64,000 bases of DNA from positions 1,736,001 through 1,800,000 of the forward strand of contig NC_052171.1 in assembly GCF_902713615.1 (NCBI RefSeq). Direction: 5' to 3'. Positions 36,192 to 55,375 of this stretch are shown here, one piece after another. A program made the position numbers and the translations under genes. Source of the DNA: Scyliorhinus canicula (taxonomy: Eukaryota). The notes beneath the pieces are model-generated. The model ran no database searches, was not told the origin of the DNA, and worked only from the letters and a program-made list of their open reading frames with translations. Numbering within the stretch: the first letter of the stretch is position 1; the number at the start of each line of letters is the position of its first letter.

Positions 36192-36360
36192 CTGGTCACT
36201 TGTGGCCCCGAGCCCGCTTCACATGGTGCTTGGGCCTCGCTTGCACGGGCGGCGCTGCTTGTGGTTCAGGCTGCCATGTCTGGGAAGCGCCTCCTCTCCC
36301 TGTGCTCACAGCCTCTGAGGCGGGACAATACCTTCCCCTGTGACGCCACTTGGCCGGGCC
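36192..36360 (-). other. Candidate 5' non-coding exon of the ITPRIP-like gene
   Basis: Strong donor CAG|GTAAGG at 36192/36191 in unique GC-rich sequence; the coding exon begins with an acceptor and needs an upstream exon. Confidence 0.5.
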
Positions 36361-36380
36361 TGGCCAGGCCGGGCTGGCTC

Positions 36381-39300
36381 CGGGCTCCCTGCCCGGGGGC
36401 TCCCTGCCCGGGGGCTCCCTGCCCGGGGGCTCCCTGCCCGGGGGCTCCCTCCCTGCCCGGGGGCTCCCTGCCCGGGGGCTCCCTCCCCGCCCGGGGGCTC
36501 CCTGCCCGCGGGCTCCCTGCCCGGGGGCTCCCTGCCCGGGGGCTCCCTGCCCGGGGGCTCCCTGCCCGGGGGCTCCCTCCCTGCCCGGGGGCTCCCTGCC
36601 CGGGGGCTCCCTGCCCGGGGGCTCCCTGCCCGGGGGCTCCCTCCCTGCCCGGGGGCTCCCTGCCCGGGGGCTCCCTGCCCGGGGGCTCCCTCCCTGCCCG
36701 GGGGCTCCCTCCCTGCCCGGGGGCTCCCTGCCCGGGGGCTCCCTGCCCGGGGGCTCCCTCCCTGCCCGGGGGCTCCCTGCCCGGGGGCTCCCTCCCTGCC
36801 CGGGGGCTCCCTCCCTGCCCGGGGGCTCCCTCCCTGCCCGGGGGCTCCCTCCCTGTCTGGGGGCTCCCTCCCTGCCCGGGGGCTCCCTCCCTGCCCGGGG
36901 GCTCCCTCCCTGCCCGGGGGCTCCCTGCCCGGGGGCTCCCTCCCTGCCCGGGGGCTCCCTGCCCGGGGGCTCCCTCCCTGCCCGGGGGCTCCCTCCCTGC
37001 CCGGGGGCTCCCTCCCTGTCTGGGGGCTCCCTCCCTGTCTGGGGGCTCCCTCCCTGTCTGGGGGCTCCCTCCCTGCCCGGGCGCTCCCTCCCTGCCCGGG
37101 GGCTCCCTCCCTGCCCGGGGGCTCCCTGCCCGGGGGCTCCCTCCCTGCCCGGGGGCTCCCTCCCTGCCCGGGGGCTCCCTCCCTGTCTGGGGGCTCCCTC
37201 CCTGCCCGGGGGCTCCCTCCCTGCCCGGGGGCTCCCTCCCTGCCCGGGGGCTCCCTGCCCGGGGGCTCCCTCCCTGCCCGGGGGCTCCCTCCCTGCCCGG
37301 GGGCTCCCTCCCTGCCCGGGGGCTCCCTCCCTGTCTGGGGGCTCCCTCCCTGCCCGGGGGCTGCCTGCCCGGGGGCTCCCTCCCTGCCTGGGGGCTCCCT
37401 CCCTGCCCGGGGGCTCCCTCCCTGCCCGGGGCTCCCTCCCTGCCCGGGGGCTCCCTCCCTGCCCGGGGGCTCCCTCCCTGCCCGGGGGCTCCCTGCCTGC
37501 CCGGGGGCTCCCTGCCTGCCTGGGGGCTCCCTGCCCGGGGGCTGCCTCCCTGCCCGGGGGCTCCCTGCCCGGGGGCTCCCTCCCTGCCCGGGAGCTCCCT
37601 CCCTGCCCGGGGGCTCCCTGCCTGCCCGGGGGCTCCCTGCTTGGGGGCTCCCTGCCCGGGGGCTCCCTGCCTGCCCGGGGGCTCCCTGCCTGCCCGGGGG
37701 CTCCCTGCCTGCCCGGGGGCTCCCTGCCCGGGGGCTCCCTGCCCGGGGGCTCCCTCCCTGCCCGGGGGCTCCCTGCCTGGGGGCTCCCTCCCTGCCCGGG
37801 GGCTCCCTCCCTGCCCGGGGGCTCCCTGCCTGCCCGGGGGCTCCCTCCCTGCCCGGGGGCTCCCTGCCCGGGGGCTCCCTGTCTGGGGGCTCCCTCCCTG
37901 CCCGGGGGCTCCCTCCCTGTCTGGGGGCTCCCTCCCTGCCCGGGGGCTCCCTCCCTGCCCGGGGGCTCCCTCCCTGTCTGGGGGCTCCCTCCCTGCCCGG
38001 GGGCTCCCTCCCTGCCCGGGGGCTCCCTCCCTGCCCGGGGGCTCCCTCCCTGCCCGGGGGCTCCCTCCCTGCCTGGGGGCTCCCTCCCTGCCCGGGGGCT
38101 CCCTGCCCGGGGGCTCCCTGTCTGGGGGCTCCCTCCCTGCCCGGGGGCTCCCTCCCTGTCTGGGGGCTCCCTCCCTGCCCGGGGGCTCCCTCCCTGCCCG
38201 GGGGCTCCCTCCCTGCCCGGGGGCTCCCTCCCTGCCCGGGGGCTCCCTCCCTGCCCGGGGGCTCCCTCCCTGCCCGGGGGCTCCCTCCCTGCCCGGGGGC
38301 TCCCTGCCCGGGGGCTCCCTCCCTGCCAGGGGGCTCCCTGCCTGCCCGGGGGCTCCCTCCCTGCCCGGGGGCTCCCTCCCTGCCCGGGGGCTCCCTCCCT
38401 GCCCGGGGGCTCCCTGCTTGGGGGCTCCCTGCCTGGGGGCTCCCTCCCTGCCCGGGGGCTCCCTCCCTGCCCGGGGGCTCCCTCCTTGCCCGGGGGCTCC
38501 CTGCCTGCCCGGGGGCTCCCTCCCTGCCCGGGGGCTCCCTCCCTGCCCGGGGGCTCCCTCCCTGCCCGGGGGCTCCCTGCCTGCCTGGGGGCTCCCTGCC
38601 CGGGGGCTCCCTCCCTGCCCGGGGGCTCCCTCCCTGCCCGGGGGCTCCCTGCCTGCCTGGGGGCTCCCTGCCCGGGGGCTCCCTCCCTGCCCGGGGCTCC
38701 CTCCCTGCCCGGGGGCTCCCTCCCTGCCCGGGGGCTCCCTCCCTGCCCGGGGGCTCCCTCCCTGCCCGGGGGCTCCCTCCCTGCCCGGGGGCTCCCTCCC
38801 TGCCCGGGGGCTCCCTGCCTGCCCGGGGGCTCCCTGCCCGGGGGCTCCCTCCCTGCCCGGGGGCTCCCTGCCCGGGGGCTCCCTGCCTGCCCGGGGGCTC
38901 CCTGCCCGGGGGCTCCCTCCCTGCCCGGGGGCTCCCTCCCTGCCCGGGGGCTCCCTGCCTGCCCGGGGGCTCCCTGCCTGCCCGGGGGCTCCCTGCCTGC
39001 CCGGGGGCTCCCTGCCCGGGGGCTCCCTGCCTGCCCGGGGGCTCCCTGCCTGCTTGGGGGCTCCCTGCCCGGGGGCTCCCTGCCTGCCCGGGGGCTCCCT
39101 GCCCGGGGGCTCCCTGCCCCGGGGCTCCCTCCCTGCCCGGGGGCTCCCTGCCCGGGCGCGCCCTGCCTGCCCGGGGGCTCCCTGCCCGGGGGCTCCCTGC
39201 CCGGGGGCTCCCTGCCTGCCCGGGGGCTCCCTGCCCGGGGGCTCCCTGCCCGGGGGCTCCCTGCCCCGGGGCTCCCTCCCTGCCCGGGGGCTCCCTGCCT

Positions 39301-39690
39301 GGGGGCTCCCTGCCCGGGGGCTCCCTGCCCGGGGGCTCCCTGCCCGGGGCTCCCTGCCTGCCCGGGGGCTCCCTGCCTGCTTGGGGGCTCCCTGCCCGGG
39401 GGCTCCCTGCCTGCCCGGGGGCTCCCTCCCTGCCCGGGGGCTCCCTCCCTGCCCGGGGGCTCCCTGCCCGGGGGCTCCCTGCCCGGGGGCTCCCTCCCTG
39501 CCCGGGGGTTCCCTGCCTGCTTGGGGGCTCCCTGCCCGGGGGCTCCCTGCCCGGGGGTTCCCTGCCTGCTTGGGGGCTCCCTGCCCGGGGGCTCCCTGCC
39601 TGCCCGGGGGCTCCCTGCCCGGGGGCTCCCTCCCTGCCCGGGGGCTCCCTGCCCGGGTACACCCTCCCTGCCCGGGTACACCCTCCCTGC
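36381..39690. repeat. 3.3-kb GC-rich minisatellite of interspersed 15-bp and 19-bp units
   Basis: GGGGGCTCCCTGCCC and GGGGGCTCCCTCCCTGCCC; almost no A on the plus strand. Confidence 0.98.
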
Positions 39691-39775
39691 CCAGGGACAC
39701 CCTCCTCCCCCCAGCCGCACTGGAATGGGTGTGAGCAGGATGAGCCAATGCTGCTTCCGGGTTTCCCAGATCGGA

Positions 39776-39881
39776 ATGGCTCACCCTGCGCTGCTGCCGC
39801 TGCTCCTGCTGCTGCTCCTGCTGGCTTACAGCCCCCTCCCCCGGCTCCACACCTTGAAACTCAACCACAGACCCATTATCG
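39776..39881 (+). CDS. GGH: Gamma-glutamyl hydrolase exon 1 (signal peptide to NHRPIIG)
   Basis: MAHPALLPLLLLLLLLAYS...RPIIG, donor G|GTAAGT; in-frame upstream ATGs at 39725 and 39740 are alternatives. Confidence 0.88.
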
Positions 39882-40376
39882 GTAAGTCCGGCTCCGGCCT
39901 GTCCCCAATGAAACTTTCCCTTCCTCCCCTCCCATTCTCCATGAAACTTCCCTCACACTGTCTCAGTCAGCCGCATTTTCTCTCCAAAAGATCTGACCAA
40001 GCCGGAGCAGACTCATCGCCCTGGGCCATTGTAGCCCAATGTGGAATCGTCAGCGACGAGAACCAACTTATTTTAATGCGCTCCTTTGCTCAGGGGGAAA
40101 TACCGCCCAAAACACTACTAGGCCGATTTGAGGAAAATATGTCCTCAACAAAGTTCCCCTATCGGTTTCCGTGATAGCTAATATGCTGTGGCCATCGGAG
40201 CAAGAGCTCTCGGATTTTGGCAGATGGAAAAATAAGACTAATGCGACAGATAGCCTTCCCAAATGGCAAAAACACTGCCCACCCTATAACAAAGTACTAA
40301 ATCTTTAAAACTCTCAAGAGGTGCTTCAGTTGCCCTCTCACACCTGGTTTCTCCATCCTCCTCCAGTGCCTGTTCT

Positions 40377-43349: not shown

Positions 43350-43700
43350 GGGGCAGCAGGGTAGCATGGTGGTTAGCATAAATGCTTCACAGCTCCAGGG
43401 TCCCAGGTTCGATTCCCGGCTGGGTCACTGTCTGTGTGGAGTCTGCACGTCCTCCCCGTGTGTGCGTGGGTTTCCTCCGGGTGCTCCGGTTTCCTCCCAC
43501 AGTCCAAAGATGTGCGGGTTAGGTGGATTGGCCATGCTAAATTGCCCGTAGTGTCCTAATAAAAGTAAGGTTAAGGGGGGGGGGGGGGTTGTTGGGTTAC
43601 GGGTATAGGGTGGATACGTGGGTTTGAGTAGGGTGATCATGGCTCGGCACAACATTGAGGGCCGAAGGGCCTGTTCTGTGCTGTACTGTTCTATGTTCTA
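43350..43700 (+). mobile_element. HE1-like SINE, CR1-type tail
   Basis: Ends GTGCTGTACTGTTCTATGTTCTA. Confidence 0.85.
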
Positions 43701-43750: not shown

Positions 43751-43865
43751 GGATATTGGCCCAGGAAACAGTTGATGCAGATCACCTTCCATACGGCAAG
43801 AGTTACATTGCTGCGCCCTATGTAAAGTATCTGGAGTCAGGTGGCTGCAGAGTGGTACCAGTCAG
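43751..43865 (+). CDS. GGH: GGH exon 2
   Basis: ILAQE...[24 protein letters not shown]; AG/GT boundaries, 115 nt, phases fit. Confidence 0.95.
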
Positions 43866-44708
43866 GTATTACTTCATATGTTTTAGTAGCTCTAGCGGCA
43901 GTCATACTGAGCAACAGCACAGAATGCACAGCCCAGTGACCCTCAGGTTGACTCAGACCCACCAACAAGAATACATCAGTTTCCCCTGGGATGCAGTGGT
44001 CAATTTTTGAATATGTGGTGGAACTGGAGATTACATGCAATTATTTTGCTCAATACATCTTATCGCAAGCAAAAGTAAGAGTACCACAATACCCTTCAAT
44101 CATTGAGGGGGAGATCAGTAAGCAGTCCTTGCAAGACAACACAGACTGCATTTGAAGTATTTCATTCATTGTGAAGCATTTTAGAGAGCCTTGAGATTGT
44201 GAAAGTGTAATACATTCGCTTTCTTTCTTTCCTGAAAAGCCGCTCGTGTAAGCTACTGAAGGCTGACTCACACGTCTCTGGATTCGTGGGAATGTGGGTT
44301 TTGCTGACAAGCTGGCATTTTATTGCCCAACCCTCACTGCACTTGAGTAGATGCCTGAGAGCCACCTTGTTGAATCCAACTGACTGGCCATTTCAGAGAG
44401 CAGCTAACAGCCAGTTGTTTGAGGTCGGTAGACACACTGAGACCAGACCGGGTGAGGGAAAGCAAGGTCCATTCCCTGAAGGAATATGGGTTTTCGAGAT
44501 AATCCTGTCATTTCATGGTCACCATTCCTGATACTAATTCCAGATTTCTGACATTAATGGAATTTAAATTGCTCAGTTACCATGGTAACCATGAAATTAA
44601 AGGTGTTTGAATGCATATCCCTGGGTCATATGGCTGGCCTCTGGATTAACTAGTCCAGTAACTAGCACTGTGCTGTCTTAACTCCATATGAAACATGTGA
44701 AGCGATAT

Positions 44709-45657
44709 TGTTGCACGTTTTACTATGGGCGTAAAACGCGTTTATTGGAGTGTATTAACACGCCTCCGAGTTCGACGTGTGCTTAACACTGCTAGGCTCT
44801 GTTCTATGTAATTATTTAGCTCTGGAGTCGCCAGCTGCCGTATAGGCAACGTCACAAGTATTCCAAGGTCAAATTCAAAGTAATAAAGACGATACACCGA
44901 TTAGTAAAGTTCAAACGATCAATATTTATTATACAGTTAATAATAAATACTCATGCACACACTAAGAGACTAAACTACAACTAAACATAAGCAAACAGAA
45001 TACTTATCTAACAGGAACAGGCAAGGTCAGAGAACGAGGCCTTCGTCCTGGTTTTGTCTGCAGCCTTCAGCAAGCGTTCTGGCACTTGGGAGTCTAGCGG
45101 GCTTGGATCGCGTAGCGAGCGTTGAACTTACGGTTTCGGCGGCTGGTGCTCAACGGCTGGAGTCAGGATACCAGGTGTCAGTCGGGGCCGGAGCACAGGT
45201 TTAACAGACCGGACAACACGAGGTCCCTATCTTTTATAGGGGTTCCGTTGTCCTTCCCTCTTCCCGGGCGGGCTCTACCTATTGGATCAATTTCTTATCG
45301 ATACTGGATTAATTCCCCAATGCGAGGGGGTCTCCGTGATGGAGGGGGCGTTTCTTATGTCCTTTTGTTCGGAGGTTTCTGGTGCCTCGATGTCTGGGTC
45401 TTGATTGGAATGTGTCCATTCAGAACCAAATGTATCTTTTGTGTGGGTGTTCAAGTCTGATGGCCTCATTAGCATGCAAAGCGTTTTGCCATTTGCACCT
45501 AGCTAAGGTCTTTTCACCTGAGCCCAAACTGGTTTCTGCTGCTGCAGAATGCAAACTGCTCTTTGCAGACTGCTGTTCTGGCTGAACTGTCTGTTTCTCA
45601 GCAGCCTTCCATTTTAGTTTGGCTCAGTGTCCATTTTGCGTGGCCAGCATGGCTACA
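44709..45657 (-). repeat. 3' LTR
   Basis: TG...CA; minus-strand AATAAA at 44925-44930; identical to the other LTR except G45327 vs A54196 as read by eye. Confidence 0.97.
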
Positions 45658-45667
45658 TTCCCTCCTT
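45658..45667 (-). other. Polypurine tract AAGGAGGGAA
   Basis: Abuts the 3' LTR on the minus strand. Confidence 0.85.
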
Positions 45668-45988
45668 GTGATCCTCACAATCATACTATTGTGAAGGATC
45701 ACCTATGTGCTTTGCCTCCTTGTGTTCTGACCTCTTGCCAGTTCCTGTTCTACTCTGTTCTAAACTATGGGAAGAAGAGAAAATTTTTTTTTAACTAACA
45801 TCTCTACTTGGCCCTATGTCAAAAGGGACATGCATTACTACAATTGGGAACCTCTACCTATCACTATTAACCTTAACCTTAACTTAAACATTTAATCACT
45901 CTAAAATCTTAACCATTCACACCACAACATCACACTTCCCAACTCGGCAGTCGAGTATGGAACAATATAATACATGGCTGAATTTTAT

Positions 45989-46342
45989 TTACAGAGTGTT
46001 GTAATCAGTGAGGGGTTGAGGGGTTTGGTGGAATCCGAAGATGGGGGATTGCACTCTATAGATGGGTGAGGTGCTGGAACGAGAGGCTCTCCTCTTCCAT
46101 TTCCTCAACCTGAGGGTCTGCACTAGGATGGTGAGGATCGCGATCACCAACAGTGATTCGATTATGTAGGACATGGAGTACCACGTCATGAATTTAGTAC
46201 ACCAGGTCTGAACCTCGCTGATCAGAGCTGAGCACTGGGGGTTTGTTGTACTAACATTTACGGTGGGGGTTGTGGGGGAAACGTGTCTTGTTTCCACACA
46301 TATACATATGACATTAAATAGTAATAAGTGGGCTTCCATCAT
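45989..46342 (-). CDS. Proviral small single-pass membrane protein, 117 aa, in the env position
   Basis: First ATG after predicted acceptor at 46445; hydrophobic N-terminus, Thr/Pro stalk with NVS sequon, Cys pair, TM YIIESLLVIAILTILVQTL, RLRKWKRR, terminal YNTL. Confidence 0.65.
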   Translation of the reverse strand: MMEAHLLLFNVICICVETRHVSPTTPTVNVSTTNPQCSALISEVQTWCTKFMTWYSMSYIIESLLVIAILTILVQTLRLRKWKRRASRSSTSPIYRVQSPIFGFHQTPQPLTDYNTL

Positions 46343-47282
46343 TTTGCTGTTCTTCTTCTTTCTCTTCCTTCTTCCTCCGGTATTGACAATCCTGGCTTCG
46401 ACCTCTGTCTCGTCCTTTGAAACCTTTGGGATCAAGCACAGTATCTGTCAATACACAGTTTAAGACCTTTACTTGTTAGTGCATCTGTCTTTCAAAACCC
46501 AATTGACCCTTTAAAATGACTGGCTAAGTCACACCCTGTGACTCCCCTCATTTTTTTTTTTCAAAAGCGAATTTAAAGACCAGCATACACCTAACAATCC
46601 TTCCTTCTGCGAGCCGTCTCGCAGGCTTTGCTGATTTACCATCCGAATGTTCCCGGATGTAAATAGCATGTGGGATGGCGGCCGAAGGGCTACCTAACGT
46701 AAAATGAAAACAAACTTGGAAACAAACATCCGAATGAGTTGCGTATGGGCCGCTACGGGTATGAGTTGGATGGGATCCCCGGGTAGGGCGTGCTGTGCCA
46801 TACCCGAGCTTGGCTGACCAAGGGTTGGTTCTCAGACAGGGCGGGTCCTCAGTGCCGTTTGTCCACTGCCTGAGTAACCTGGAGAAAACGGGTACGAATG
46901 TGTTTACCATGACTTGCAGCCTCTATTTCGCCGAATAGAGGGGCACCTAAAAAAAAAACCAAGGGAGCCAAGATGCTCCAACTGAGGACATCACTGAAGT
47001 TCTCAGAGATATCTGCAGATAAACTATTTGGCGTGTGGCCTTACAACTTTGGAAAAGATCTCCAATCAAACCGAAGTTCTCAGAAGTATCTGCGGACAAA
47101 CTAACGTGTATGTGAGGTGGTCACAATCTTTTCAGCTGAAAAGAAGATGTCCATCCTCCAGCTGAAACATTTACATTCCTGAAAACAAACAAACATAAAA
47201 CGAAGACAAACATACGTGCAGGTTCCATCAGAAAGGACATCGTTTCCCTCAAACGATTCCTATCTTACATCATCTGGACACC

Positions 47283-50200
47283 TCACTTTGATTCTGCCTC
47301 TGTGAACAGGGTCACAAAGGGGTTGCCGTGTCGGGAGTCAGACACCGTGTCGTCCTGCTCTCCCGGATCCCACACCCTTGTGTGGATCAGGCATGCTATT
47401 TTGGAGTTGTGTGACCGGGGGTCACTTTCATCATTGCGGACAAGTCTGTAGGAATTGTCCCTGTGCCATTGTGTAGCGTCGAGTGTGTTGTCGGGGTAGT
47501 CGGGGTCGGGTGGTGGTTCTGGGTTTTTAAGGTAAGTGACTTCCATGGGGTCACTGGAGTCGGGGTCGTAGTTGGTGCAGTGTGGGCTGTATGGCTGTGT
47601 GGTGTCGCTGTCCTCAGAGTCAGTGTCTGTCCTACTGTCTCTGCTGTGGCAGCTTGTGGGCGTGTCGGGGCGTGGTCTGTAGTGGTCTGTGGGCGGAGTC
47701 GTGGGCGAGTCCGTTGATGAACTGGTCTGTGAGGGGGATGGTGGAAAAGTGTTTCTGGTGGGCGGGGTGAAGTGTTCTGCTGCATCCAGCAGGACATGGT
47801 GAGCATGGTTGGCCTGTGTTCCATATGCCTTTAACTGGTTTATATGGAACCACGCGGTCTTCCCATTAGGATATTTGATCCTGTATACGGAGGGGCTAAT
47901 TTTGTCCGAAATTGAGTAGGGACCGGAATATTTTGGAGCCAAAAAACTGCTGGGGTTATAAACAGATAACATTACCTGTTGCCCAACCTGGAATTCTGTG
48001 GTGTGTACGGTCTTATTGAAACAGGCAGTCCGTTGCTGTCGGCGTTTCCCTAGCTGGACTGCGGCTGCGAGCTGTGCAGACCTCACAGTCTCAACTAGAT
48101 CTTTAACTGCCTTTTCATGTGTGAGGGCCGTCACTTCGGGGCTTGTCATGTCCAGTCCTAAAAGGAATTCTGTACCTTTCATAGGGCGTCCGGTCATGAG
48201 TGTATGTGGTGTGTATCCTGTAGATGTGGAGACAGTGTTCCTTATGAACATAAGTGCAAAGGGGAGCACTGAATCCCATGTGGAATTGTTCTCTTGAACC
48301 ATTTTTCTGAGGGTAGTTTTTAGGGTCCGATTCATGCGCTCCACAATCCCGCTGGACTGTGGATGATACGCAATGTGGAAGTTTTGTTTGATGCCGAATA
48401 TTGTCAGGACGTTCCTCATGACCCGTCCTGTAAAGTGAGATCCCTGGTCCGAATCGATACTTCGGGGTAAACCCCATCTCGTGAAGATGTGGTGGGTCAG
48501 GATCTTTGCAGCTGTCTTAGCTGTGTTTGTTCGTGAGGGAAATGCCTCTACCCACTTGGTAAAGGTATCTATCACCACCAGAACGTATTTATAGCCATTC
48601 CTGCAAGGGGGCAATGGACCTATAAAGTCGATCTGGAGGTTTGTCCAAGGGCCGTTAACTGGGCGAGTATGCCGAAGTTGTGCTTTCTTAGAATACCTCT
48701 CCGGGTTATTCTGAGCACAAATCAGGCAATTCTCTATGTAGTGCGTTACATCATTCCTGAGATTAGGCCACCAACAGAGTTGCCTGAGGTGCCTCGTTGT
48801 TGCATCAATTCCCTGATGCCCGTGTCCGTCATGGAACAAGGCAATCATCTGATTCCTGTCCTGCTGTGGGACCACATAAAGTTGGTCCTTAATGATCACA
48901 CCCTCATGTGTGGTCAGTGCGTGTTTAAAGTGCTCGTAAGCAGGCACAAAGTTTCCCTTGAAAACCTCCCTGAGGTCTCCGTCCTGTTTTTGTGCTGCCA
49001 CGAGATCTTTAATATCAGTCTGTGAGACTTGGACTGCGCTCACAGGGGCGCTAGCTGGTGCGCTAGCTGGGGGGGTCCATAAGTGTCCTCTCCTGGAACC
49101 TGCTTTAGCCAATGCGTCGGCTTTTACATTCCCAGGGGGTGATGACCTATGGTGGCTTCGAACTTTTATAATGCCGAAGGTCCTGTCCTTCGCTTTTGCT
49201 AAAATATGCTGGAGTAGAGGGGCTGATGGAAGGGGTTTTCCGTCTGCGGAGACAAAACCTCGTGTCCTCCACAGGGGCAGAAAATCGGTTAAACTGTTAC
49301 AGACATATAAGCTGTCTGAATATATGTCTGCTGGGCTGGGGAAAGAATCGGGGTGGTCCACTATGTACGCTATGGCTGCTAGCTCTGCTGCCTGCGCGCC
49401 TAAGTGACCTGGTAACTTAAGAGCTATCTCTTCGAGAGCGCGCCCCTGCGCGTCCTCTACATAGATGCCGCATCCTGTGATACGCTCACCATTTAAAACT
49501 GTGGAGGAACCGTCTACATAAATCCTCAAGGGTCCACACGTGTCTGTGGGCTGGGGGCTTTGTTTCGGGTTCCCTATCTTCCTGGGGGGTGTTTTTGCTA
49601 AAAAGGGTCCTGTGTTATGCAGGGGAACTACAATTTCACAGTCATGGGGCTGTCCGGGGTATTGGAGGTTGTCGGCTAAGTATGTGTGTGTGCGTGTCCG
49701 TTTCACTGTAATGTCCCGTCCTTGTAAAAGTAGGGTCCACCTAGCTGCCCTAATCTGGCTAACTGAACCGTCCTTCAGTCGACCGTCTAGTAGTAGCTGT
49801 GTGGGTGTGTGTTCGGTCAGAATAGTAATGGGGTTGAGTCCGGTGATGTATGAGAAATACTGTACTGCCCAGAAGACAGCAAGGAGGTGCCTCTCACAGG
49901 CTGAAAATCCTTGTTCTACTGGGTCTAACAGTCGGGAGGCATAAGCCACTGGTCTTAGCTGCTCGTGCCGTTCCTGAAGCAACACGGCCGAGAGGGTCAG
50001 ATCGGTGCTCGCTACCTCTATTGCGTACGGTGAAAGTTGGTCGGGGACTAGCAGCGCGGGTGCTGCACTAAGGGCTCGTTTCAACTCTTCCACAGCGCCT
50101 GTATGCTGCGGAAGCCATTCCCAGGGGGCTCCTTTCTTAAGGAGGTCTGAAAGTGGGGCGGCTTTTGTCGCGAATCCGTCGATGTGGTTCCGACAATAGC

Positions 50201-51509
50201 CAACCAGTCCTAAAAACGACCGGAGGGCTGATACATTCTGGGGAAGGGGCAATTTGACAATCGAATCAATTCTTTTGAATTCGATCTCGCGTTTGCCTTG
50301 CGTGATGACTGTTCCCAAATACATCACTTTACTTTCCAATATCTGGGCCTTTTTCGGGTTAACTTTACAGCCAATTTCAGTTAAGAGTTCTAGGAGTTCG
50401 GCCAGAAGCGAAATGTGCTCTGCCTTTGTGTCTGTCTGCAGTAGTAGGTCGTCTACATACTGTACCAGACAATCGGGTCGGGAAAATTTTTCTAATCCAC
50501 TTGCCAGCTGTCGGTGGAAAATGGAGGGTGAATTGTGGAATCCTTGTGGGAGGCATGTCCACGTGTACTGCTGTGTTTTAAAAGTGAATGCGAATTTGTA
50601 TTGGCACGCTTTTGCCAATGGTATTGACCAGAATCCATTACTGATGTCCAATACCGTGAAGTACTTGGCGTTGAGACCCTGCTTGAGCATGGTCTCGGGA
50701 CTAGTAGCTACCGTTGGGGCTACTGCGGGGGTTACTTTGTTGAGTTCCCGATAATCGATGGTCAGACGCCATGATCCATCGGGCTTCCTCACTGGCCAAA
50801 TAGGGGTATTGTTGGTGGAGGCTACCGTTCTCAGTACACCTTGGTCCAACAAGCTGCCTATAACTTTTTCTATTTCCACCTCTGCCTCGAGGGGAAATCT
50901 ATACTGTTTTTGCGGTCGGGGGTCCTGTCCGGTAACATGAACTTGTCCAGTCATTCTACCACAGTCATGACGGTGACTTGCAAATGCTGTCCTGTGTTTG
51001 TTTAGTAGGGCCTTAATTTGTCTGTCGGTGTGGAGTGTAGTCAGGTCGAATGAGTACTCTCCCACTGCGCTAATCCGATTAGCGTAGTCTCCTACTGTGA
51101 GGGTGGCTGGGGCTCTGTCTGATCTCGCCATTCGCCAGACACACTGGTTCACTGGGTCGAACGACAAGCTATGAGCGTTCATAAAATCTATCCCCAGGAT
51201 GTGCTCTGCTGTCCGGGGAAGATTTACTAAAACTACGGGGTGCCTTGTGCTAATGTTCCCTAGCTGGATCGCTACGGGTGCTGTGATATGTCCCTGCTGC
51301 GAGTGTCCGGTGAACCCGCTAAGTGTGATGGTGGAGGTGGTCGGCCACGTGTCTATGTGTGCCGTGGTTGTGGAGTTAATGGTGGTGCGGGATCCTCCTG
51401 TGTCCCACAGTAACTCTATGGGCTTCCCTTTGACTTTTGCCGTGACTACGGGCCTCCCTGATGAGTCCCATAGTGTGTCACAGACCCAAGTGGGGGAGCC
51501 CGAACACCG
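47283..51509 (-). CDS. pol: Pro-Pol (protease, RT, tether/RNase H-like, RNase H, integrase), 1408 aa, in frame with gag
   Basis: Translated by hand upstream of the listed ORF with no stop: LLWDTGGS and ILGIDFM; RT LPQGFHNSP and YVDD; RNase H YVDGSS, AELAA, YSDS, GNVKADALAK; IN HHCC, D-D35-E and GPY. Confidence 0.95.
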   Translation of the reverse strand, partial: RCSGSPTWVCDTLWDSSGRPVVTAKVKGKPIELLWDTGGSRTTINSTTTAHIDTWPTTSTITLSGFTGHSQQGHITAPVAIQLGNISTRHPVVLVNLPRTAEHILGIDFMNAHSLSFDPVNQCVWRMARSDRAPATLTVGDYANRISAVGEYSFDLTTLHTDRQIKALLNKHRTAFASHRHDCGRMTGQVHVTGQDPRPQKQYRFPLEAEVEIEKVIGSLLDQGVLRTVASTNNTPIWPVRKPDGSWRLTIDYRELNKVTPAVAPTVATSPETMLKQGLNAKYFTVLDISNGFWSIPLAKACQYKFAFTFKTQQYTWTCLPQGFHNSPSIFHRQLASGLEKFSRPDCLVQYVDDLLLQTDTKAEHISLLAELLELLTEIGCKVNPKKAQILESKVMYLGTVITQGKREIEFKRIDSIVKLPLPQNVSALRSFLGLVGYCRNHIDGFATKAAPLSDLLKKGAPWEWLPQHTGAVEELKRALSAAPALLVPDQLSPYAIEVASTDLTLSAVLLQERHEQLRPVAYASRLLDPVEQGFSACERHLLAVFWAVQYFSYITGLNPITILTEHTPTQLLLDGRLKDGSVSQIRAARWTLLLQGRDITVKRTRTHTYLADNLQYPGQPHDCEIVVPLHNTGPFLAKTPPRKIGNPKQSPQPTDTCGPLRIYVDGSSTVLNGERITGCGIYVEDAQGRALEEIALKLPGHLGAQAAELAAIAYIVDHPDSFPSPADIYSDSLYVCNSLTDFLPLWRTRGFVSADGKPLPSAPLLQHILAKAKDRTFGIIKVRSHHRSSPPGNVKADALAKAGSRRGHLWTPPASAPASAPVSAVQVSQTDIKDLVAAQKQDGDLREVFKGNFVPAYEHFKHALTTHEGVIIKDQLYVVPQQDRNQMIALFHDGHGHQGIDATTRHLRQLCWWPNLRNDVTHYIENCLICAQNNPERYSKKAQLRHTRPVNGPWTNLQIDFIGPLPPCRNGYKYVLVVIDTFTKWVEAFPSRTNTAKTAAKILTHHIFTRWGLPRSIDSDQGSHFTGRVMRNVLTIFGIKQNFHIAYHPQSSGIVERMNRTLKTTLRKMVQENNSTWDSVLPFALMFIRNTVSTSTGYTPHTLMTGRPMKGTEFLLGLDMTSPEVTALTHEKAVKDLVETVRSAQLAAAVQLGKRRQQRTACFNKTVHTTEFQVGQQVMLSVYNPSSFLAPKYSGPYSISDKISPSVYRIKYPNGKTAWFHINQLKAYGTQANHAHHVLLDAAEHFTPPTRNTFPPSPSQTSSSTDSPTTPPTDHYRPRPDTPTSCHSRDSRTDTDSEDSDTTQPYSPHCTNYDPDSSDPMEVTYLKNPEPPPDPDYPDNTLDATQWHRDNSYRLVRNDESDPRSHNSKIACLIHTRVWDPGEQDDTVSDSRHGNPFVTLFTEAESK

Positions 51510-53258
51510 TCAGTTCGTCTCGTCCACATTGGTGGGTCCTGACTGTACTGCTACATTGTGGATTGGTTTTGCTTTGTTGCGGTTCAGAGTGCCTGTCTGC
51601 TGGCCTCTCTGAGATCGCTGGGGTGCATTACACTCTTTTGCCCAATGCCCTAACTGTCCACAGTTATAGCATTCCTGTCCTTTCTGTTGAGGGCTGCTCT
51701 TGCCTTCATTTACCCATGCGGGCTTCTGGTGCTCTCTGACTGCTTGGATATCTGCAGCAGCCTGAGCCTCTTCTGGGGATCTAACCTTTGCTTTTGCCTG
51801 AAGCGATTGCTCCCAAGCGCGGGACAATCTTTTGAGGACCCATTTTTCGTTATGGGCCTCTTCTGAGGGGTCGTAATTATTGCAAGCGCTCTGTCCTGCT
51901 TCTGTTGCGTGTGAGATAATTGTGCGCGTCCACTTAACCATGTTTTCGCGGGTTAAATGCGCTCTATCTAGCTGTCCGAAAACTGCGCTGAAATGAATCC
52001 ACAGCCTTCCTGCGAATGCTGTGGGGTGTTCGGATCTCTTCTGCCTGCACTTATTTAAGCCTTCTACGGGGTCACCTCTATTGTACCCGATGGCATCTAA
52101 AATGGCAGTGTGCATCTCCTCTAGGCTGCCTCCTGCCACGTTCTGTGGGTCGGGGAGGGCTGCCACTACACTCTGGTCTAAGCTCAGCACGGTGAGCTTA
52201 ACCTGCTCTCTCTCATCCAGGCCGTACATGGTAGCCTGCTGTTTTACTTTAGCAAAGAACTGGTGGGGGTCTGCGGTGGGGAGGAACGGAGTGATCTTTT
52301 CACAAGCGTCCCTTAGCTGGGTTACTGTTAAAGGGGTGGTGTAAGTTATGTCTGGGGCGCCTTCTGATTCGGCTTTCCTCTGTGTGGTTACGGGATTCAT
52401 GGGTGCGGTTATGGTCTGAGCTGTGGGGGGTTGGGGTGCCTGTCGTTTCTGCTGAGCTGCTGGCGCACATGTTCCCTGAACATAACGCTGCGCTGTCTCG
52501 CTTAATTCCTGCCAATCTGGGGCATTTTCCCCATCTAACTGAGCTCCAAAGGTGCTTTGGAAGCCATTCTGCACCGAAAGCAGAGATTGCAGTTCCGCAA
52601 TCTGTTTCCTGCATTTCGCGTGGTCAACTGTGCTTTGTCTTTGTTCGGTCGTTGCAGCGTGGAGTGCTCTCAAAGCTGCTTTGAGATCGGAGCATTGCCT
52701 CTGCAATGCCTCCACCTGCTTTTCCGATTCCTGTCTTATCAGAACGGCACGTTGCACGTCCTGATAGGCTTTCTCATACTGGGTCTGGGAACTGTTCAGA
52801 TGAGCTAGACAAGACTGGTGAGCCCTCTTGGCATCATCCACCTCTCTACCCTTCTCTGCCAACTTCCCTTTTAATTCCAGGTTTTCTTTCTCGATGTCCC
52901 TGACATCGACCTTACTCATTCGGTTCCTTTCCTCTAAATCTGCCCGGAGCGTCCTGATGACCTCCTCTGCGCCTCGCAACTGTGCCAAGCAGGACACAAT
53001 CGCCATCGGCTTGCGTGCTTTACTTAAACTCTTTTTGTGTATTTGAGAGAGGTTCTCCCACCAAGTATGACCTATACTTCCGGGACCTGTCTCCTCATTT
53101 GCACAAAACTCTTTCCAAAGGGGCCATCCCTTTCCCTGCAGATATTTGCGGAGTTCCAGCTCCCACGTGGGACACTGGCCTACTCTGCTACTGCTGCTGG
53201 TCGCTGCGACCACAAACTTTGCTGGATCCATCAGACGTTCCATTGCCTGCATGGCCAT
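51510..53258 (-). CDS. gag: Gag, 582 aa, with long N-proximal coiled coil and one CCHC knuckle
   Basis: First ATG at 53258; CYNCGQLGHWAKEC; ends in TGA. Confidence 0.92.
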   Translation of the reverse strand: MAMQAMERLMDPAKFVVAATSSSSRVGQCPTWELELRKYLQGKGWPLWKEFCANEETGPGSIGHTWWENLSQIHKKSLSKARKPMAIVSCLAQLRGAEEVIRTLRADLEERNRMSKVDVRDIEKENLELKGKLAEKGREVDDAKRAHQSCLAHLNSSQTQYEKAYQDVQRAVLIRQESEKQVEALQRQCSDLKAALRALHAATTEQRQSTVDHAKCRKQIAELQSLLSVQNGFQSTFGAQLDGENAPDWQELSETAQRYVQGTCAPAAQQKRQAPQPPTAQTITAPMNPVTTQRKAESEGAPDITYTTPLTVTQLRDACEKITPFLPTADPHQFFAKVKQQATMYGLDEREQVKLTVLSLDQSVVAALPDPQNVAGGSLEEMHTAILDAIGYNRGDPVEGLNKCRQKRSEHPTAFAGRLWIHFSAVFGQLDRAHLTRENMVKWTRTIISHATEAGQSACNNYDPSEEAHNEKWVLKRLSRAWEQSLQAKAKVRSPEEAQAAADIQAVREHQKPAWVNEGKSSPQQKGQECYNCGQLGHWAKECNAPQRSQRGQQTGTLNRNKAKPIHNVAVQSGPTNVDETN

Positions 53259-53554
53259 TTCCTCTGACTCTCTTTTTATAATTTGGAACAGGGGGTTGCT
53301 GGGGTGGTGTTTCGAGAAACGGGTACGGCTTGCGCTATGTTCCGTTAACAAAACTACCGAAAGTTTGTCGCAACAAAAAGCTTTCAGTTTTACCTTACAG
53401 CCCTGTTAGTACGCATGCACTAAAACACACTTCCGAATTTCGCTTATTATTTTGAACACCTTGAATACTTGTGATCTCTTTCTTTCTCTGCAATTTGGAG
53501 TTCTAATTCAAATTTCAGGGTCCTGGACACTGTGGTGTTTCCACTTACAACAGG

Positions 53555-53572
53555 GTCCCGGCGGAGTCGCCA
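53555..53572 (-). other. Primer-binding site for tRNA-Arg(UCU)
   Basis: TGGCGACTCCGCCGGGAC is complementary to the recalled vertebrate tRNA-Arg-TCT 3' end GUCCCGGCGGAGUCGCCA; 5 nt from the LTR. Confidence 0.8.
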
Positions 53573-53577
53573 CTAAA

Positions 53578-54526
53578 TGTTGCACGTTTTACTATGGGCG
53601 TAAAACGCGTTTATTGGAGTGTATTAACACGCCTCCGAGTTCGACGTGTGCTTAACACTGCTAGGCTCTGTTCTATGTAATTATTTAGCTCTGGAGTCGC
53701 CAGCTGCCGTATAGGCAACGTCACAAGTATTCCAAGGTCAAATTCAAAGTAATAAAGACGATACACCGATTAGTAAAGTTCAAACGATCAATATTTATTA
53801 TACAGTTAATAATAAATACTCATGCACACACTAAGAGACTAAACTACAACTAAACATAAGCAAACAGAATACTTATCTAACAGGAACAGGCAAGGTCAGA
53901 GAACGAGGCCTTCGTCCTGGTTTTGTCTGCAGCCTTCAGCAAGCGTTCTGGCACTTGGGAGTCTAGCGGGCTTGGATCGCGTAGCGAGCGTTGAACTTAC
54001 GGTTTCGGCGGCTGGTGCTCAACGGCTGGAGTCAGGATACCAGGTGTCAGTCGGGGCCGGAGCACAGGTTTAACAGACCGGACAACACGAGGTCCCTATC
54101 TTTTATAGGGGTTCCGTTGTCCTTCCCTCTTCCCGGGCGGGCTCTACCTATTGGATCAATTTCTTATCGATACTGGATTAATTCCCCAATGCGAGAGGGT
54201 CTCCGTGATGGAGGGGGCGTTTCTTATGTCCTTTTGTTCGGAGGTTTCTGGTGCCTCGATGTCTGGGTCTTGATTGGAATGTGTCCATTCAGAACCAAAT
54301 GTATCTTTTGTGTGGGTGTTCAAGTCTGATGGCCTCATTAGCATGCAAAGCGTTTTGCCATTTGCACCTAGCTAAGGTCTTTTCACCTGAGCCCAAACTG
54401 GTTTCTGCTGCTGCAGAATGCAAACTGCTCTTTGCAGACTGCTGTTCTGGCTGAACTGTCTGTTTCTCAGCAGCCTTCCATTTTAGTTTGGCTCAGTGTC
54501 CATTTTGCGTGGCCAGCATGGCTACA
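53578..54526 (-). repeat. 5' LTR with promoter
   Basis: TATAAAA on minus at 54101-54107, CCAAT about 45 nt upstream. Confidence 0.97.
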
Positions 54527-54674
54527 ATATGCCAGAAAGAGCTTGTGCCTTCAGAAGGTGGATAAAATTGTTGGGAGGAAAAATAAAAACCACATAGTAA
54601 TGGTACAATATTTGGAGATTTTTACTACAGGGAGCCAATGACTCAGGCTGCTGTAATAAAGGAAAATTATGAAA

Positions 54675-54885
54675 GTGGCACAGTGGTTAGCGCTGCTGCC
54701 TCACAGCGCCGAGGACCCGGGTTCGATCCCAGCCTCGGGTCACTGTCTGTGTGGAGTTTGCATATTCTCCCCATTTCTGCATGGGTTTCACCTGCACAAC
54801 CCAAAGATGTGCAGGGTAGGTGGATTGGCCACGCTAAATTGCCCCTTAATTGGGAAAAAAATAATTGGGTACTCTGAATTTTTAA
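54675..54885 (+). mobile_element. SINE
   Basis: Head, core and A-rich tail. Confidence 0.8.
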
Positions 54886-54931: not shown

Positions 54932-54982
54932 GTTGAATCTGACGAATGACGAATATGAAAGGATTTTCTCTTCAATCAATGG
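54932..54982 (+). CDS. GGH: GGH exon 3
   Basis: LNLTNDEYERIFSSING, 51 nt, AG/GT; not in the ORF track. Confidence 0.93.
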
Positions 54983-55166: not shown

Positions 55167-55375
55167 GGGTGGCACGGTGGTGCAGTGGTTAGCTCTGCTA
55201 CCTACAGCTCTGAGGACCCAGCCCCGGATCACTGTCTGTGTGGGTTTGCACATTCTCCCCGTGTCTGCCTGGGTTTCACCCCCACAACCCAAAGATATGC
55301 AGGTCAGGTGGTTTGGCCACGCTAAAGTGCCCCTTAATTGGAGACAAATAATTAGGCACTCTAACTTTTAAAAAA
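55167..55375 (+). mobile_element. SINE
   Basis: Flanked by AAAAC(T/C)CTGAGGCT repeats. Confidence 0.8.

Follow-up and report, generated by a model that had tools for sequence, protein, structure and literature searches.

A window of 64,000 nucleotides from the catshark Scyliorhinus canicula (contig NC_052171.1, positions 1,736,001 to 1,800,000, forward strand; positions below are those of this window) carries a provirus within the GGH gene. The reading that we favor, with modest confidence, is that this provirus is a young member of a large retroviral family that lacks env and stands at the grade of the snakehead retrovirus (SnRV), that the family was likely copied by its own Gag and Pol, and that a small membrane protein likely stands in for Env. 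As to how this protein would act, we give roughly equal weight to transfer from cell to cell and to anchoring at the membrane during assembly. The interest rests on the selected small membrane gene and not on the single copy in GGH.

Absence of env and a conserved small reading frame

The initial annotation called the provirus env-less. This holds in so far as no env gene was found in any copy examined (45 resolved copies, the word pairs on contig C1, 11 further loci and 20 diverged loci), but the 3' region is not empty. Since env belongs to the standard gene set of Retroviridae, we read its absence as loss or replacement. It contains a conserved open reading frame (small ORF) for a membrane protein of 117 residues. 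On C1, 64 of 67 exact words from the reverse transcriptase (RT) had the small-ORF word 4,580 ± 120 nt downstream, and this fixed distance leaves no room for env. Two of the remaining RT words showed a longer spacing through insertions and one was unpaired. Longer copies were considered as env carriers and rejected: five longer C1 elements held a transposase-like insertion, RT-like insertions, short insertions or duplications of the long terminal repeat (LTR), and no env. The 11 further loci (82–95% nucleotide identity) comprised nine with the primer binding site (PBS) word but without the LTR-start word, and two others. Here the small ORF was open in seven, interrupted in one and truncated in three, and none had env. 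The 20 diverged loci were chosen by their matches to the small ORF. Gag and/or pol was located upstream in 18, four had gag and the small ORF without pol, one (L134) had neither gag nor pol, and L123 was scored in the wrong orientation. Where pol was present, it ended about 0.9 kb before the small ORF in 13 of 14 loci. The older lineages keep the same layout, with Pol mostly 75–88% and the small ORF 49–68% identical.

The predicted protein starts with an N-terminal hydrophobic stretch (a predicted signal peptide), which was found in all 22 aligned small-ORF proteins, followed by an N-x-S sequon at residue 29 and a Ser/Thr/Pro stalk. Next come an aromatic membrane-proximal helix (WCTKFMTWY), a membrane helix at about residues 56–76 with an invariant Glu62 inside it, the basic cluster RLRKWKRR and a short tail; this topology was derived from hydropathy only. 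The luminal sequon was present in 21 of the 22 proteins, and six to seven lysine or arginine residues within 15 residues of the membrane helix in all of them. A cystine loop as in the p10 type of FAST (fusion-associated small transmembrane) protein was rejected, because the first Cys (residue 36) varies in older lineages.

Purifying selection on the small ORF was observed at two depths. Among 44 copies and the window element, 24 synonymous and 8 non-synonymous variants were counted on 81 and 270 sites, respectively (p 7e-10). In this set, from which L032 was dropped for its many indels, shared pN/pS was 0.06 for gag, 0.06 for pol and 0.16 for the small ORF. Comparison with eight diverged copies gave a ratio of non-synonymous to synonymous rates (dN/dS) of 0.14–0.21 overall and of 0.04–0.07 for residues 36–88, with a dS of up to 0.69 over the whole ORF. 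The sole shared indel in the small ORF was of 3 nt and kept the frame; the flanks had indels of 1, 2 and 4 nt. We consider it very improbable that the small ORF is not a working gene and owes its conservation to an RNA element located toward the 3' end. The lack of a spliced read (see below) would fit such an element, as would the upstream non-coding spacer, which is equally or more conserved at the nucleotide level. The dS of up to 0.87 against a dN of at most 0.046 in residues 36–88, the frame-keeping indel and the ORF being open in 19 of 20 older loci argue against it. The spacer itself (46470–46950) was conserved at the nucleotide level and, across old lineages, more so than the small-ORF DNA; it may act in export, packaging or translation. 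No Rfam match was found for its RNA structure. Further ATG frames within the spacer, for example one of 124 codons at 46548–46922, were rejected, as indels among the copies break them.

The small protein might instead be an accessory factor, which we regard as unlikely. The family would then retrotranspose within germ cells, and the protein would counter a host restriction or immune factor or form a small channel (Vpu- or M2-like). Several observations agree with this: the outer part and signal region evolve faster than Pol (at the identities given above), Glu62 is invariant within the membrane helix, SnRV has small accessory ORFs of 52, 94, 76 and 205 residues (PMC12193657), and the Atlas matches, all below 0.9, included a weak resemblance to influenza M2 (0.84) at the level of a lead. 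However, the small ORF is the sole ORF in the env slot, it is placed behind an env-like donor/acceptor pair, and it has no similarity to the SnRV small ORFs (best E 0.5).

Four matches, and no homolog outside Scyliorhinus, came from a profile search against 1.84 billion representatives. All four were RefSeq models of S. canicula and S. torazame, either relatives of the small ORF or gene models spliced into one, and two of them were identical to loci in the catshark assembly. No homologs were found in a word-indexed search of near lengths, and Foldseek gave no match at E < 0.001 with a model of predicted local distance difference test (pLDDT) 65. These searches bear on the idea that the small ORF is an env remnant, left by one old internal deletion and retained for some remaining function, for example in assembly at the endoplasmic reticulum membrane. 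Its mechanism would overlap with that of an Env substitute and only the origin would differ. The env position, the env-like splice signals and the order of signal peptide, stalk, aromatic helix, anchor and tail speak for a remnant. With no Env among the four profile matches and no match to SnRV Env, we judge this origin to be rather improbable. As a separate observation, the immunoglobulin-domain model of a S. torazame HEPACAM2-like isoform X2 (P0194) ends, over residues ~340–454, in a small-ORF-like anchor and basic cluster. This suggests that the acceptor of an endogenous retrovirus (ERV) can lend host genes an alternative membrane anchor.

A splice acceptor was predicted 81 nt upstream of the small-ORF ATG. 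Its AG was kept in 21 of 21 aligned rows, and two RefSeq models join exons at this site. The predicted donor in the R region was kept across LTR subfamilies, and the predicted spliced RNA has no ATG between the predicted start site and the small ORF. Two other signals were rejected: an acceptor just after pol (~47175) is not conserved, and a donor directly after the PBS is lost in 5 of the 10 copies shown. RNA from three raw runs (32%, 34% and 1% read) and one contig set was mapped to 45658–54526, and reads covered 30 of 30 bins. The family is transcribed in sense and polyadenylated in the LTR, as seen in two single-end runs with mostly plus-strand reads (element-sense RNA under the usual stranded protocol) and in 55 poly(A) tails located 18 nt after the LTR AATAAA (position equivalent to 53776). 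Depth increased 3- to 6-fold over the final 1.5 kb and U3, stepping up near 47.1 kb (47100–47200), where no junction was listed. This may stem from 3' bias, from a run of A near 46550 or from a subgenomic RNA. Among indexed runs, none was listed with RNA of the element.

Gag, Pol and the placement among retroviruses

Gag has 582 residues from the ATG at 53258 (631 from stop to stop), and its frame ends in TGA with pol following in frame. Pfam identified one CCHC knuckle in Gag and, in Pol, protease (PR), RT, tether RNase H, a second RNase H, the integrase (IN) zinc finger, rve and SH3. Landmarks are PR DTG near 51410, RT YVDD at 50459, RNase H at 49520–49130, IN HHCC at 48833–48720 and DDE at 48635–48340, followed by GPY/SH3 and a Pro/Thr/Asp-rich tail; all RT and IN motifs quoted in the initial annotation were present. 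Gag is without an N-terminal Gly. Its capsid-like region resembles Retrotrans_gag by language-model features (0.94), and a long helix at ~82–237 was predicted in a low-confidence model; the pLDDT of the Gag model was 39. At the gag stop, TGACGGTGT was found in 40 of 45 copies, the pattern having no match in five, and also in older lineages. After the TGA come CGG and about 35 nt that hardly vary among copies. A readthrough hairpin at this stop was not supported, the fold being not significant (z -1.4). In one locus (L074, G000:C14:149676100-149686050) the usual stop is absent, and gag and pol form one frame of 2,020 codons.

The RT tree (LG+G4) contained 42 rows chosen from 79, without delta, long alpha/beta branches and near-duplicates, and without ERV-L, ERV4, OVEX1/SpeV, FLERV (fish, amphibian) and CmiERV rows. 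Group labels were given by motif and are not curated names. Loki rows were recognized by motif in the supplement of PMC7947760, the motifs of the SnRV Pol row match the SnRV row of the same supplement, and a viral record of 12.7 kb that has the WDSV motif served to anchor the epsilon rows. The element fell together with those of frogs and coelacanth in a 9-row clade (87/98), basal within the Retroviridae, which made up a 32-row clade (100/98) with loki and Gypsy outside. A quick tree of all 79 rows gave the same Retroviridae split. The Pfam domains and the RT tree thereby confirmed the earlier proposal of a basal retroviral lineage that is not Ty3/Gypsy. Tether and second RNase H are present, as in Retroviridae, and Ty3/Gypsy was rejected on this double RNase H and on an RT outside Gypsy in both trees. 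The further claim of a foamy-like RT and a spuma- or loki-related lineage had to be dropped. In approximately unbiased (AU) tests an RT clade with foamy viruses (p 0.021) or lokiretroviruses (p 0.011) was rejected, and the clade with SnRV gave p 0.19. The foamy assignment also fails on the CCHC in Gag and on pol being in frame with gag, and the lokiretrovirus assignment on LPQG versus PFG and on the absence of an F-like env or smc gene. Class I (epsilon/gamma) was rejected as well, since the RT lies outside it. ERV3 (ERV-L) and ERV4 have a 5-bp target-site duplication (TSD), no zinc finger and no GPY/F motif (PMC4299795 Table 1); they were rejected by features, as the element has a 4-bp TSD, CCHC and GPY instead. 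A 4-bp TSD is also an ERV1 feature (PMC4299795 Table 1).

RT scores were highest with the frog/coelacanth elements (253–311 bits), followed by SnRV (228), loki-type (154–178), foamy (147–165) and gamma (123–156). For IN, which had been described as foamy-like, foamy viruses reached 126–145 bits versus 220–233 for full-length loki-type and 237–290 for frog/coelacanth IN, so that this description could not be kept; SnRV IN gave 115. Despite the high scores to loki IN, the fork toward it was unsettled in the IN tree. By these comparisons the element would be a basal SnRV-grade retrovirus with a loki/NYNRIN-type IN, which may or may not fall within the SnRV clade in the strict sense.

The nearest relatives are elements annotated as 'NYNRIN-like' or 'GIN1-like' in Pyxicephalus, Rhinophrynus, Aquarana, Xenopus and Latimeria (RT 52–59% identical), which have a double RNase H and a similar IN, as in the catshark element. 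Among named viruses SnRV scored best, with an RT 49% identical. In both, an Arg tRNA PBS follows a spacer whose last bases are AG (Arg(ACG) in SnRV, 3 of 4 loci; Arg(TCT) in the element). Both have a single CCHC knuckle and keep gag and pol in frame across a stop, which is TAG in SnRV and TGA here. The two Gag proteins were alignable at the knuckle only. SnRV Gag is described as non-myristoylated with a coiled coil (PMC2717909), and the element Gag is alike, its helix coming from the low-confidence model. SnRV (10,688 nt; PMC12193657) differs from the element by its env frame, about 1,100 codons long, and by its several accessory ORFs. Lokiretroviruses share the double RNase H, by score the loki/CGIN1 (NYNRIN)-type IN, and the deep position, whereas the element has no paramyxovirus-F-like env and no long insertion before RT. 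The available text of PMC7947760 reports no lokiretrovirus in three orectolobiform sharks. Foamy viruses share YVDD and a long R with a predicted donor in R, and foamy Pol was the best PDB match because the PDB gave no closer one. The catshark ERV-Spuma.0-Sca (9,220 nt, 866-nt LTRs, 982-codon pol, env; PMC10699275), compared by its description, is a different family by its dimensions and its env.

The SnRV-like clade corresponds to clade Huo (PMC6001957) and, in the elephant shark, to CmiERV lineage I (PMC4422223). SnRV-like ERVs are described from cartilaginous fish in PMC4422223, PMC4977317 and PMC6001957. The suggestion that the lineage may be undescribed in this host group therefore fails for the wider group, and what stands of it is that the family itself was not found in print. 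Our literature search, which did not extend to Repbase, Dfam and subscription journals, gave no account of the catshark family and none of a protein of this kind from any vertebrate retrovirus. A consensus of the family may exist in a repeat library.

Family size and the insertion in GGH

The copy-number check proposed in the initial annotation was run, and the GGH provirus is not a lone curiosity but one of about 1,000 copies. Exact words were counted in the whole genome (4.22 Gb), giving 2,406 for the LTR start, 1,024 for RT, 1,059 for the small ORF and 365 for LTR-PBS junctions of the window type; reversed control words gave 0. These counts indicate that internal copies number about 1,000 and that solo LTRs are comparatively few. 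Further copies belong to older lineages (150 of 1,771 and 150 of 2,476 candidates were scored). For closer analysis 46 elements were taken, namely 11 with LTRs nearest to those of the window and 35 LTR pairs from the first 100 C1 matches, and 45 were resolved (L028 was left out, its 5' LTR end not being located). No substitution separated the LTRs in 19 of the 45. The frame of gag was open in 36 copies, that of pol in 28 and that of the small ORF in 43; all three were open in 24. The polypurine tract was identical or a one-base variant in 45 of 45. LTR subfamilies differ mainly in U3 (71–99.6% identity versus at least 93% elsewhere). For the PBS TGGCGACTCCGCCGGGAC, a matching host tRNA-Arg(TCT) gene was found (ARAGORN called one of three loci). 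In the 45 copies used for the PBS (L004–L054 plus five joined C1 loci), the commonest form (23 of 45) has one extra base compared to the tRNA-Arg(TCT) end, and there were several other 19-nt variants, some of which we take to be ends of other Arg isoacceptors. The deviating forms may match odd tRNA genes or may be slips that were inherited. This variation among copies is as expected of repeated reverse transcription.

Some copies deviate from the standard form. Six loci (L126, L129, L130, L133, L025 and L026) kept gag, the small ORF and the LTRs with pol deleted, and may belong to a non-autonomous subfamily. Tandem proviruses with a common middle LTR, recognized by three LTR starts or by two PBS words ~8.87 kb apart, were located at G000:C1:102284463-102302232 and C3:127689568-127698458. 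L009 and L010 (G000:C9, ~0.5 Mb apart) have equal length and identical flanks and are probably a segmental or assembly duplicate rather than two insertions. L015–L016 carries a 2.15-kb insertion with a 488-codon transposase-like ORF. L017–L018 carries insertions of 3.5 kb and 0.3 kb, the larger with RT-like ORFs on both strands, presumably Penelope-like.

The provirus of the window (44709–54526, minus strand) is bounded by LTRs of 949 bp each with TG...CA ends, and the coordinates of its features are collected in the table. Most of the anatomy reported earlier was confirmed. Alignment of the LTRs gave a single mismatch in 949 positions (45327 G / 54196 A), the TSD is perfect with ATAT on both sides, and gag, pro-pol, PBS and polypurine tract are intact according to the ORFs, the Pfam domains, the tRNA match and the position of the tract at the 3' LTR. 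The insertion is antisense in GGH and 405 nt from the next exon, as shown by the match to human GGH and the exon start at 54932. Of the description 'very recent', only the youth stands, in a relative sense, as the age hangs on the assumed rate. The LTRs would date to ~0.24 million years at 2.2e-9 (a mammalian rate) or ~2.4 million years at 2.2e-10, the rate assumed for sharks (PMC4422223). A single mismatch has a very wide Poisson range, so that 'young' is all one can say.

Features of the provirus and its surroundings in the window
Feature	Positions	Strand	Remarks
GGH exon upstream of insertion	43751..43866	+	match to human GGH, E 2e-6
TSD ATAT, left	44705..44708		perfect 4-bp TSD also in 37/45 other copies
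3' LTR, 949 bp	44709..45657	-
Polypurine tract AAGGAGGGAA	45658..45667	-	abuts 3' LTR
Small ORF, env position, 117 aa	45989..46342	-
Predicted branch point and splice acceptor	46424..46453	-	exon start would be 46423
Non-coding spacer, pol to small ORF	46454..47282	-	indels among copies break frame
pol, 1408 aa	47283..51509	-
gag TGA stop and CGG context, predicted readthrough signal	51475..51512	-
gag, 582 aa	51510..53258	-
PBS, tRNA-Arg(TCT), after 5-nt TTTAG spacer	53555..53572	-
5' LTR	53578..54526	-	TATA 54107; predicted donor GTAAGT 54000; AATAAA 53799
TSD ATAT, right	54527..54530
GGH exon downstream of insertion	54932..54982	+	405 nt beyond LTR

The two flanking exons are presumably exons 2 and 3, as numbered in the initial annotation and in the usual GGH structure. 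As regards an empty site, the assembly has one copy of the GGH exon region and no second haplotype. Two 81% matches to part of a GGH exon, possibly paralogs, were found at G000:C16:2071947 and 2136692. The GGH introns also contain three copies of a tRNA-headed repeat resembling a short interspersed nuclear element (43361–43547, 54675–54860 and 55177–55348). At 36200–39900 the window has ~3.7 kb with 80% G+C, extreme strand skew and all six frames open, which is probably a tandem repeat.

A possible substitute for Env

The selected gag and pol, the many young copies with TSDs and the varied Arg PBS point to repeated reverse transcription. In the replication cycle that we propose, U3 would drive a full-length RNA, and Gag-Pol would be made by readthrough of the TGA-CGG stop. 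An Arg tRNA would prime reverse transcription, and the 4-bp duplications would be the work of IN. The small protein would be encoded by an RNA spliced once, from the donor in R to an exon starting at 46423; it is predicted to pass into the secretory pathway, its short outer part glycosylated and its inner part basic. As Gag lacks a myristoylation site, the small protein would supply the membrane attachment of the capsid. By analogy to fly sORF2, it may also hand capsids to a neighboring (germ) cell. According to Belshaw and colleagues, selection on env among ERV copies is reportedly a standard sign of a membrane step in replication. We extend this logic to a secretory-pathway protein in the env slot and on this basis propose the role of an Env substitute.

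FAST proteins, known from reoviruses, have no signal peptide. Criteria for FAST and sORF2 proteins have been given in a preprint (bioRxiv 10.1101/2025.03.14.642691). The small ORF agrees with these in length (60–210 aa), its single helix, the short outer part and at least three K/R within 15 residues after the helix. With the sORF2 of the Drosophila MDG1 group it shares an env-less LTR element as carrier, a short single-pass protein after pol and an amphipathic outer stretch. It differs in its predicted N-glycan, in the lack of sequence similarity and in being carried by a vertebrate retrovirus. Since the myristoylation motif is missing and there is no sequence similarity, we do not count the small ORF as a FAST/sORF2 member. 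Two fly sORF2s are likewise without this motif, and the available text of the preprint names insect elements, nackednaviruses and picornaviruses, but not Retroviridae (10.1101/2025.03.14.642691). A bolder version, which we think unlikely, is that a vertebrate retrovirus lineage lost Env long ago and spread through catshark genomes in waves via cell-to-cell transfer by an independently arisen FAST/sORF2-like protein, which would be the first in Retroviridae, and that it may still insert.

Several results weigh against an Env substitute in an SnRV-grade family. Neither a donor-acceptor read nor a splice joint was found in the three RNA sets and the contig set (4% threshold), so that expression of the small protein is only predicted, and the reads can be assigned to the family but not to the GGH copy. 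Neither in sequence nor in structure did the small protein match any Env, FAST or sORF2, and MGxxxS/T was found in 0 of 22 small-ORF proteins, which in addition have an apparent signal peptide, unlike FAST. As the diverged loci were chosen by small-ORF similarity, an env-bearing relative without the small ORF is possible elsewhere in the genome. SnRV monophyly was absent from the free RT tree, though it was unrejected, and SnRV IN groups with foamy IN (98/98), apart from the IN of the element. Finally, the env-less IAP, MusD and ERV-L spread efficiently with no gene of this kind. These families resemble the catshark family in high copy number, the absence of env and many full-length young copies; they are not known to retain, where env would be, a membrane gene under selection.

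An ERV that has lost env is usually regarded as confined to a single cell. That a membrane gene under selection occupies the env slot across thousands of insertions and two species means that the replication cycle still has a membrane-linked step. If cell-to-cell transfer is true, the Env-independent route of fly retrotransposons would have arisen in vertebrate retroviruses as well. A near-basal family that combines a basal RT with a loki/NYNRIN-type IN bears on the gain and swap of Env and IN. ERV surveys that require env (such as PMC4422223 and PMC10435555) would miss the catshark family by design. In a laboratory model shark, the ~1,000 young copies (~10 Mb) provide insertion markers and are a likely source of new mutations.

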